In this document: positions 23,600 to 23,958 of the stretch, piece by piece
Layout of the letters: each line of letters opens with the position of its first letter
Numbering within the stretch: position 1 is the first letter of the stretch
Origin: Escherichia coli
Lineage (GTDB): Bacteria; Pseudomonadota; Gammaproteobacteria; Enterobacterales; Enterobacteriaceae
DNA length: 64,000 bases
Assembly (NCBI RefSeq): GCF_044324785.1
Contig: NZ_CP172127.1
Reading direction: 5' to 3' (one strand)
Made by a program: the position numbers and the translations under genes
The notes under the pieces: model-generated
Told to the model about the DNA's origin: nothing
What the model saw: the letters and a program-made list of their open reading frames with translations, nothing else
Database searches by the model: none

Positions 23600-23654
23600 A
23601 GAAAAGCCCCGAGTGATATTTTACCATCAACCCGAGGCCCCCTATATGCTGAAC
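23600..23654 (-). ncRNA. sokC: sokC antisense RNA (position inferred)
   Basis: Placed by mirroring the recalled K-12 arrangement in which sokC overlaps the mokC start on the opposite strand; no independent sequence signature checked. Confidence 0.4.
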
Positions 23655-23855
23655 ACATGTAGAGTGCCTCTTACTGACCGTAAGGTCAAGGAGAAGAGAG
23701 CAATGAAGCAGCATAAGGCGATGATTGTCGCCCTGATCGTCATCTGTATCACCGCTGTAGTGGCGGCGCTGGTAACGAGAAAAGACCTCTGTGAGGTTCA
23801 CATCCGAACTGGCCAGACGGAGGTTGCTGTTTTCACGGCTTACGAATCCGAGTAA
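23646..23855 (+). CDS. mokC: Overlapping regulatory reading frame of the hok/sok type I toxin system
   Basis: 69-aa frame MLNTCRVPLTDRKVKEKRA... reading through hokC. Confidence 0.7.
   Translation: MLNTCRVPLTDRKVKEKRAMKQHKAMIVALIVICITAVVAALVTRKDLCEVHIRTGQTEVAVFTAYESE
23703..23855 (+). CDS. hokC: Type I toxin HokC (Gef)
   Basis: 50-aa frame MKQHKAMIVALIVICITAVVAALVTRKDLCEVHIRTGQTEVAVFTAYESE matches Hok family. Confidence 0.9.
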   Translation: MKQHKAMIVALIVICITAVVAALVTRKDLCEVHIRTGQTEVAVFTAYESE

Positions 23856-23862
23856 GAGCAAC

Positions 23863-23882
23863 GGCGGGGAGTGATCCCCGCC
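23863..23882. terminator. GC-rich hairpin between hokC and dnaJ
   Basis: GGCGGGGAGTGATCCCCGCC inverted repeat. Confidence 0.45.
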
Positions 23883-23958
23883 ACTTTACAGGTGCTCGCA
23901 TATCTTCAACGCACCCTGGTTTTACCCAGGCCTGCCCACGGGCAGGCTTTTGGGGAGG

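Follow-up and report, generated by a model that had tools for sequence, protein, structure and literature searches.

The window analysed here, a stretch of 64,000 nucleotides of an Escherichia coli chromosome (contig NZ_CP172127.1), exhibits the gene order nhaR-nhaA-hok locus-dnaJ-dnaK. The ORF list and the K-12 annotation reveal the same synteny in K-12, relative to which the segment is in reverse orientation. The genes nhaR (20986-21909), nhaA (21951-23117), dnaJ (23959-25119 in the ORF list, stop codon included) and dnaK (25178-27094) are all located on the minus strand. Between nhaA and dnaJ, an 80-aa ORF of the plus strand (23613-23855) encloses mokC and hokC, both in the same frame. The toxin gene hokC, also called gef (23703-23855, plus strand; ATG at 23703, stop codon at 23853-23855), is preceded by a Shine-Dalgarno sequence GGAG at 23690-23693 and encodes a 50-aa protein, MKQHKAMIVALIVICITAVVAALVTRKDLCEVHIRTGQTEVAVFTAYESE. 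The gene mokC (23646-23855, plus strand), taken from the ORF list and the K-12 annotation (b0018), starts with the ATG at 23646 behind a GAGG Shine-Dalgarno sequence (23634-23637) and encodes 69 aa, being an N-terminal in-frame extension of hokC. The overlapping mok frame characteristic of hok/sok-type loci, where its translation is coupled to that of hok, is thus found here. On the other side of the locus, a 319-aa ORF (19989-20948, plus strand) adjoins nhaR; K-12 has an IS1A about 175 bp downstream of nhaR. In other strains this ORF is annotated as 'fimbrial family protein' (frameshifted) or 'hypothetical protein', and the 20-kb neighbourhood also holds a fimbrial usher gene and espX1.

HokC matches the Pfam profile HOK_GEF (PF01848) with 85.5 bits (cut-off 22) over profile positions 1-42 of 42, which places it in the Hok/Gef family of small single-pass membrane peptides (about 50 aa); MokC scores 84.2 bits. 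The NCBIfam Hok models provide only sub-threshold matches to HokC (46.8 bits, cut-off 73). A HokC-specific NCBIfam model appears to be absent, and the Pfam match is decisive for the family. In RefSeq, PGAP calls the 50-aa hokC CDS 'mokC: type I toxin-antitoxin system toxin MokC' (locus L002, 3254-3406, and most RefSeq matches). At the RNA level, the segment 23553-23705 matches the Rfam family RF01794 'sok' with 119.5 bits (gathering score 59) and an E-value of 2.7e-28, which excludes a chance match. This family, described as 'sok antitoxin', matches the plus strand of the hok mRNA from the tac element to the hokC AUG, so that the model as built describes the leader of the toxin mRNA and not the antisense strand. 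Other Rfam matches above the gathering score in the window are the sRNA tpke11 (25090-25167, minus strand) between dnaK and dnaJ, the sRNA ES003 (5290-5342, minus strand) and the thr operon leader (38831-38950, minus strand).

The antisense RNA gene sokC is unannotated outside K-12. Alignment with K-12 sokC (b4413, 16952-17010) places it at 23654-23596 on the minus strand, a position that spans the mokC start at 23646, as expected for a cis-encoded antisense RNA overlapping the mok start region. The predicted fold of SokC, computed on 23655-23597 and hence offset by one base from the mapped gene, exhibits an 11-nt free 5' tail and a terminator-like hairpin with a U-run (-22.1 kcal/mol, z = -3.9). 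A putative sokC promoter lies at 23661-23689 (minus strand), with a -35 box TTGACC (23689-23684), a 17-nt spacer and a poor candidate -10 box CACTCT (23666-23661); this region is identical in K-12 and the window. For hokC, a putative -10 box TATAAT (23541-23546, plus strand) is positioned 6 nt upstream of the presumed mRNA 5' end, with a weak -35 region (ACAGAA, 23518-23523). A scan of 23400-24000 with consensus promoters and terminators missed both the hokC promoter, owing to its poor -35 region, and the hokC terminator, and returned only two matches at chance level. The full-length hokC mRNA would extend over about 400 nt (23553-23952, plus strand), from 5' GGGUGCUUGAGG to the U-run of the terminator, if its 5' end is set at position 1 of the RF01794 match and its 3' end at a hairpin plus UUUU. 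The complete locus, 3' untranslated region included, therefore spans approximately 23541-23952 and should be drawn so, beyond the ORF alone. A preliminary description had delimited it as 23600-23893, an interval that holds the ORFs and leaves out the promoter and tac (23541-23564) as well as fbi and the terminator (23904-23952).

The paradigm of the family, hok/mok/sok (parB) of plasmid R1, shares with this locus the gene order, the antisense layout, the tac-fbi lock, an mRNA of about 400 nt and the model of 3' processing. The R1 locus is plasmid-borne whereas the present one is chromosomal, and mok and hok of R1 overlap in different frames, unlike the in-frame mokC of the window.

Predicted structure of the hokC mRNA and its conservation

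The hokC stop codon is separated from the dnaJ stop codon by exactly 103 bp (23856-23958), as the preliminary description had stated, and this gap represents the 3' untranslated region of the hokC mRNA. Only a GC-rich hairpin was described there, but we identified two hairpins in addition to fbi. The first is the post-ORF hairpin (23863-23882, plus strand), GGCGGGGA-GUGA-UCCCCGCC as RNA and GGCGGGGA-GTGA-TCCCCGCC as DNA. It is followed by a segment (23883-23903, plus strand) that, in the full-length mRNA, is predicted to pair around the mokC start (23644-23665), and by the fold-back inhibition element fbi (23904-23916, plus strand; CUUCAACGCACCC), located on the 3' side of the point where IS186 is inserted in K-12. 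The second hairpin (23929-23948) forms, together with UUUU, the putative intrinsic terminator of the hokC mRNA (23929-23952, plus strand; GGCCUGCC-CACG-GGCAGGCU), 7 bp from the dnaJ stop codon. This terminator may double as the opposite-strand end for dnaKJ transcription.

The minimum free energy (MFE) fold of 23553-23953 has -167.5 kcal/mol (z = -5.8 against shuffles), and its predicted helices reproduce those of the textbook hok mRNA. The translational activator element tac (GGGUGCUUGAGG; 23553-23564, plus strand), at the presumed mRNA 5' end, is predicted to pair with fbi in a 12-bp helix (23553-23564:23904-23916; fbi strand CUUCAA-C-GCACCC) with pairing probabilities of 0.95-1.0. The 5' tac to 3' fbi pairing of hok/sok-type mRNAs is thereby recovered in the model. 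In the same fold, the mokC start region forms three helices with the 3' untranslated region (23644-23649:23898-23903, 23654-23656:23892-23894 and 23658-23665:23883-23890), and the region of the hokC ribosome-binding site (23690-23701) is paired to 23838-23849 within the ORF. After removal of fbi in silico, the mRNA 5' end is predicted to refold onto 23604-23610. Full-length, trimmed and K-12-type transcripts differ little in how accessible the mok and hok start sites are predicted to be, with no clear switch, so that simple equilibrium folding does not reproduce the activation step. Such folding misses the published kinetic refolding, and the accessibility result counts neither way.

The comparison was extended to diverged hok homologs from plasmids (loci L012-L018; E. 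coli, Salmonella, Enterobacter, Candidatus Fukatsuia and Aeromonas). In each of six full-length hok mRNAs folded independently, that of the window included (E. coli, plasmids, Enterobacter, Fukatsuia and Aeromonas), the first 10-12 nt pair near the 3' end, and the pairing probability of the first five to eight nt is at least 0.85. The segment paired with the 5' end is located 34-39 nt from the 3' end, defined by the terminator, in five of the six mRNAs; the distance is 8 nt in Aeromonas, where the sequence ended at the U-run directly after fbi. The Salmonella IncFIB homolog (L014), whose 3' end was arbitrary, exhibits a probability of only about 0.5-0.6 for the pairing of tac with the 3' region, and was left out of the alignment of 10 sequences.

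When the MFE structure of the window is laid on this alignment, 83.2% of the cells are paired, against 38-45% when the partners are slid; the former figure is inflated, since the structure under test derives from the window, itself one of the aligned sequences, and five of the 10 rows are near-identical E. coli hokC. Pairs changed on both sides number 48, against 11-18 in the slid controls, and for four of five measures none of 500 shuffles matched the observed value. Among the individual elements, the post-ORF hairpin attains 97.5% pairing and has 3 compensatory pairs, and the terminator attains 89% and has 6. The helices between the mokC start region and the 3' untranslated region are 74-80% paired, and the tac-fbi helix 88%. 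The GCACC core of fbi is invariant in the 10 homologs, and the 6-bp tac-fbi core, being likewise invariant, carries no covariation signal.

Proposed mechanism and possible activity of the locus

By homology with hok/sok of plasmid R1 we infer a mechanism for the window strain, from the ends of the transcript through its 3' processing and refolding to the toxicity of the peptide. The weak promoter would produce a stable hokC mRNA of about 400 nt, in which tac (23553-23564) would be locked to fbi (23904-23916), and the mokC start and the hokC ribosome-binding site buried in long-range helices. With its start regions buried, the full-length mRNA would be neither translated nor bound by SokC. Slow exonucleolytic trimming from the 3' end would then take off the terminator and fbi, the 5' end would refold onto 23604-23610, and the mok start and the SokC target would open. 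Short-lived SokC would pair across the mokC start region and lead to decay of the mRNA; once SokC is depleted, mokC/hokC translation would yield the 50-aa membrane toxin. The window has all the elements in intact form, a predicted structure that is conserved, and an unoccupied IS186 site. The earlier suggestion that this strain may carry a functional hok/sok system is thus supported at the level of sequence and predicted structure.

We are much less sure of any measurable effect of the locus than of its identity. We give slightly less than an even chance to the possibility that the locus, intact in sequence, is physiologically silent, its RNAs being made and the toxin never reaching an amount that kills or arrests the cell. 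The absence of IS186 would then make no phenotypic difference from K-12. The wild-type hokC locus of the literature was taken from ECOR24 (PMC3562002) and, compared through its description, is also free of insertion sequences and carries tac, mok, sokT and fbi. According to the account of Pedersen and Gerdes (1999) given in bioRxiv 10.1101/2025.08.07.668861, this IS-free ECOR24 hokC with its full element set led to no post-segregational killing and no activation by rifampicin. R1, in contrast, kills plasmid-free segregants. Furthermore, HokA and HokB encode a conserved cysteine where HokC has Tyr47, and A-to-I editing is reported at 9% for the hokC mRNA in K-12 (PMC12214031). As the codon UAC (23841-23843) specifies tyrosine, a HokC cysteine arises through low-level A-to-I editing alone. 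The hexamer UACGAA, comprising this codon and the following GAA, shows no variation among the 10 hok homologs of the alignment. A silent locus would also fit the presence of IS186 at the hokC site in about 30% of complete genomes, both orientations together. Against this reading, the mRNA architecture is kept well beyond the ORF, with compensatory changes, and the toxin sequence is conserved; the protein, identical to that of K-12, is toxic on overexpression (HokC control in bioRxiv 10.1101/2025.08.07.668861). A conserved architecture together with a conserved and toxic peptide argues for purifying selection on regulated expression. Moreover, assays of post-segregational killing probe plasmid stabilisation, and not chromosomal roles such as persistence.

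A cryptic mutation other than an insertion sequence, in tac, fbi, the promoter or the ORF, could also make a pseudo-locus of the uninterrupted copy. Such lesions are known elsewhere: the IS-free isolate 30345_1#247 (L009) has a CAG-to-TAG nonsense mutation at hokC codon 3 (window position 23709), and is annotated with a shorter Hok/Gef protein, and the IS-free strain 2013C-4081 (L006) has an uncompensated G-to-A change in tac (window position 23557). The comparison set consisted of nine IS-free E. coli hokC loci and two IS-bearing loci from which the IS had been removed. The window exhibits the majority base wherever the sequences vary in tac, fbi, the start regions of mok and hok or the sokC region, and so it does in the ORF with the sole exception of 23756. 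The preliminary description had called for an alignment with K-12 in search of further mutations in the mok/hok fold-back elements; against K-12 and ten other E. coli loci, the tac and fbi elements, both ribosome-binding sites (mok and hok), the sokC region and the toxin ORF all proved free of lesions. From the presumed mRNA 5' end to the insertion point, the window and K-12 differ at two bases, 23640 (C in the window, T in K-12), which is near the mok ribosome-binding site, and the synonymous 23756. Further downstream, positions 23918-23919 read GG in the window and AT in K-12. The changes specific to the window are the synonymous Ala18 codon GCT (T at 23756) and this GG, just 3' of fbi, which recurs in a single one of the eleven loci compared. 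The predicted structure leaves these two positions unpaired, and strains vary freely at them. The alignment thus already largely refutes a cryptic inactivating mutation, which we regard as very unlikely.

The empty IS186 site and its distribution in E. coli

The orthologous locus of K-12 MG1655, hokC (gef)/mokC/sokC (sof) (b4412/b0018/b4413), occupies the same position between nhaA and dnaJ and encodes an identical HokC protein. The annotation of MG1655 places IS186A at 15387-16731, between dnaJ (ending at 15298) and hokC (16751-16903, complement), in agreement with the preliminary description, which puts an IS186 copy of K-12 in this interval. Alignment reveals that the 10-bp sequence GGAGTGATCC, present on both sides of IS186 in K-12, occurs as a single copy in the window (23868-23877), which identifies a clean empty site, and no IS186 inverted repeat or end was found anywhere in the 64-kb window. 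The interrupted allele of K-12, with the 1.3-kb IS186A and the GGAGTGATCC duplication in the post-ORF hairpin, is therefore not that of the window, and the hokC/mokC/sokC locus is indeed free of an insertion sequence as first described. In K-12, the element lies in the loop of the post-ORF hairpin (window 23863-23882), between the ORF and all its 3' partners. It parts the ORF from fbi and the terminator, removing both from the transcript. This location agrees with the view that the IS186 downstream of K-12 gef/hokC disrupts fbi and mRNA processing, the gef transcript terminating within the IS (PMC3562002). Inactivation by insertion elements has been suggested for hokA, hokC and hokE of K-12 (PMC12214031).

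Among 5,426 complete E. coli genomes, the locus is present in 5,425 and uninterrupted over a whole 601-bp query in approximately 3,791 (70%); nearly all the remaining genomes break at query position 429, corresponding to window position 23878. For the 20 kb from 13000 to 33000 of the window, the best match in this collection is strain N3 with 99.1% (next listed, 98.6%), which suggests that the lineage of the window is poorly represented there. Queries for the IS186 junctions, at 80% coverage and about 91% identity, matched up to 820 of the 5,426 genomes for the K-12 orientation and up to 939 for the opposite one. These counts are upper bounds, as their sum exceeds the 1,634 genomes not uninterrupted, and some matches are paralogous or plasmid hok-IS186 junctions (e.g. 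H34). The element in opposite orientation is found at the same hokC position with the same 10-bp GGAGTGATCC duplication, within a different flanking haplotype (both orientations: L003 3420-3440 and 4755-4785; L001 1488-2832), and the Br_167 junctions, like those of K-12, place IS186 at window 23868-23877. Two orientations on different haplotypes indicate at least two independent insertions at one site. The IS-free state is the ancestral and majority one in E. coli; K-12 is the deviant, and the window strain is not peculiar. That the empty site arose by secondary loss of IS186 through precise excision is extremely improbable: the element is active, the site is a hot spot and both orientations occur in the population, but the window has one 10-bp target copy with no scar and no IS186 end, 70% of the genomes are IS-free (O157:H7 and ST131 strains among them), and the hairpin is also uninterrupted in diverged homologs from plasmids and other genera. 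We conclude that the window very probably carries the ancestral, uninterrupted chromosomal hokC/mokC/sokC locus, a type I toxin-antitoxin module of the hok/sok type.

IS186 has a target preference for GGGG(N6/N7)CCCC (SaiSree et al. 2001, as cited in PMC6925257). The post-ORF hairpin of the window holds an unoccupied perfect target of the form GGGG-N6-CCCC (GGGGAGTGATCCCC, 23866-23879), the only GGGGN6CCCC site within the 64-kb window, and a similar post-ORF GC hairpin is found in every hok homolog examined. Two such homologs, distinct from hokC and relevant here for their hairpin as a recurrent IS186 target, are themselves interrupted. The paralogous hokE/sokE of K-12 has IS186B in the equivalent post-ORF hairpin (L020 1590-1615), and the hok homolog of the IncY plasmid pRHB30-C17_3 (L013, CP057283.1, around 630-660), 75% identical, has an IS186/IS421 in the equivalent GGGG...CCCC hairpin; a sister plasmid locus (L012) is uninterrupted. 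The structurally conserved hairpin, as a perfect IS186 target, might make hok loci sinks for IS186, with repeated insertions selected because they disarm the toxin. We consider this scenario unlikely as a whole; if insertions are indeed retained by selection, the IS-free hokC of the window would be physiologically active, and costly under some conditions.

The locus of the window is an already known, ordinary hokC (gef)/mokC/sokC (sof). It carries little weight as a discovery, since Pedersen and Gerdes (1999, Mol Microbiol 32:1090) already reported both the IS186 lesion of K-12 and an intact wild-type locus, and most E. coli carry the latter form. Mild novelty lies only in the evidence, at population scale, that the conserved hairpin behind the ORF is a hot spot repeatedly hit by IS186. 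As K-12 is the exception, what is concluded from it about hokC/sokC may not hold for natural isolates.
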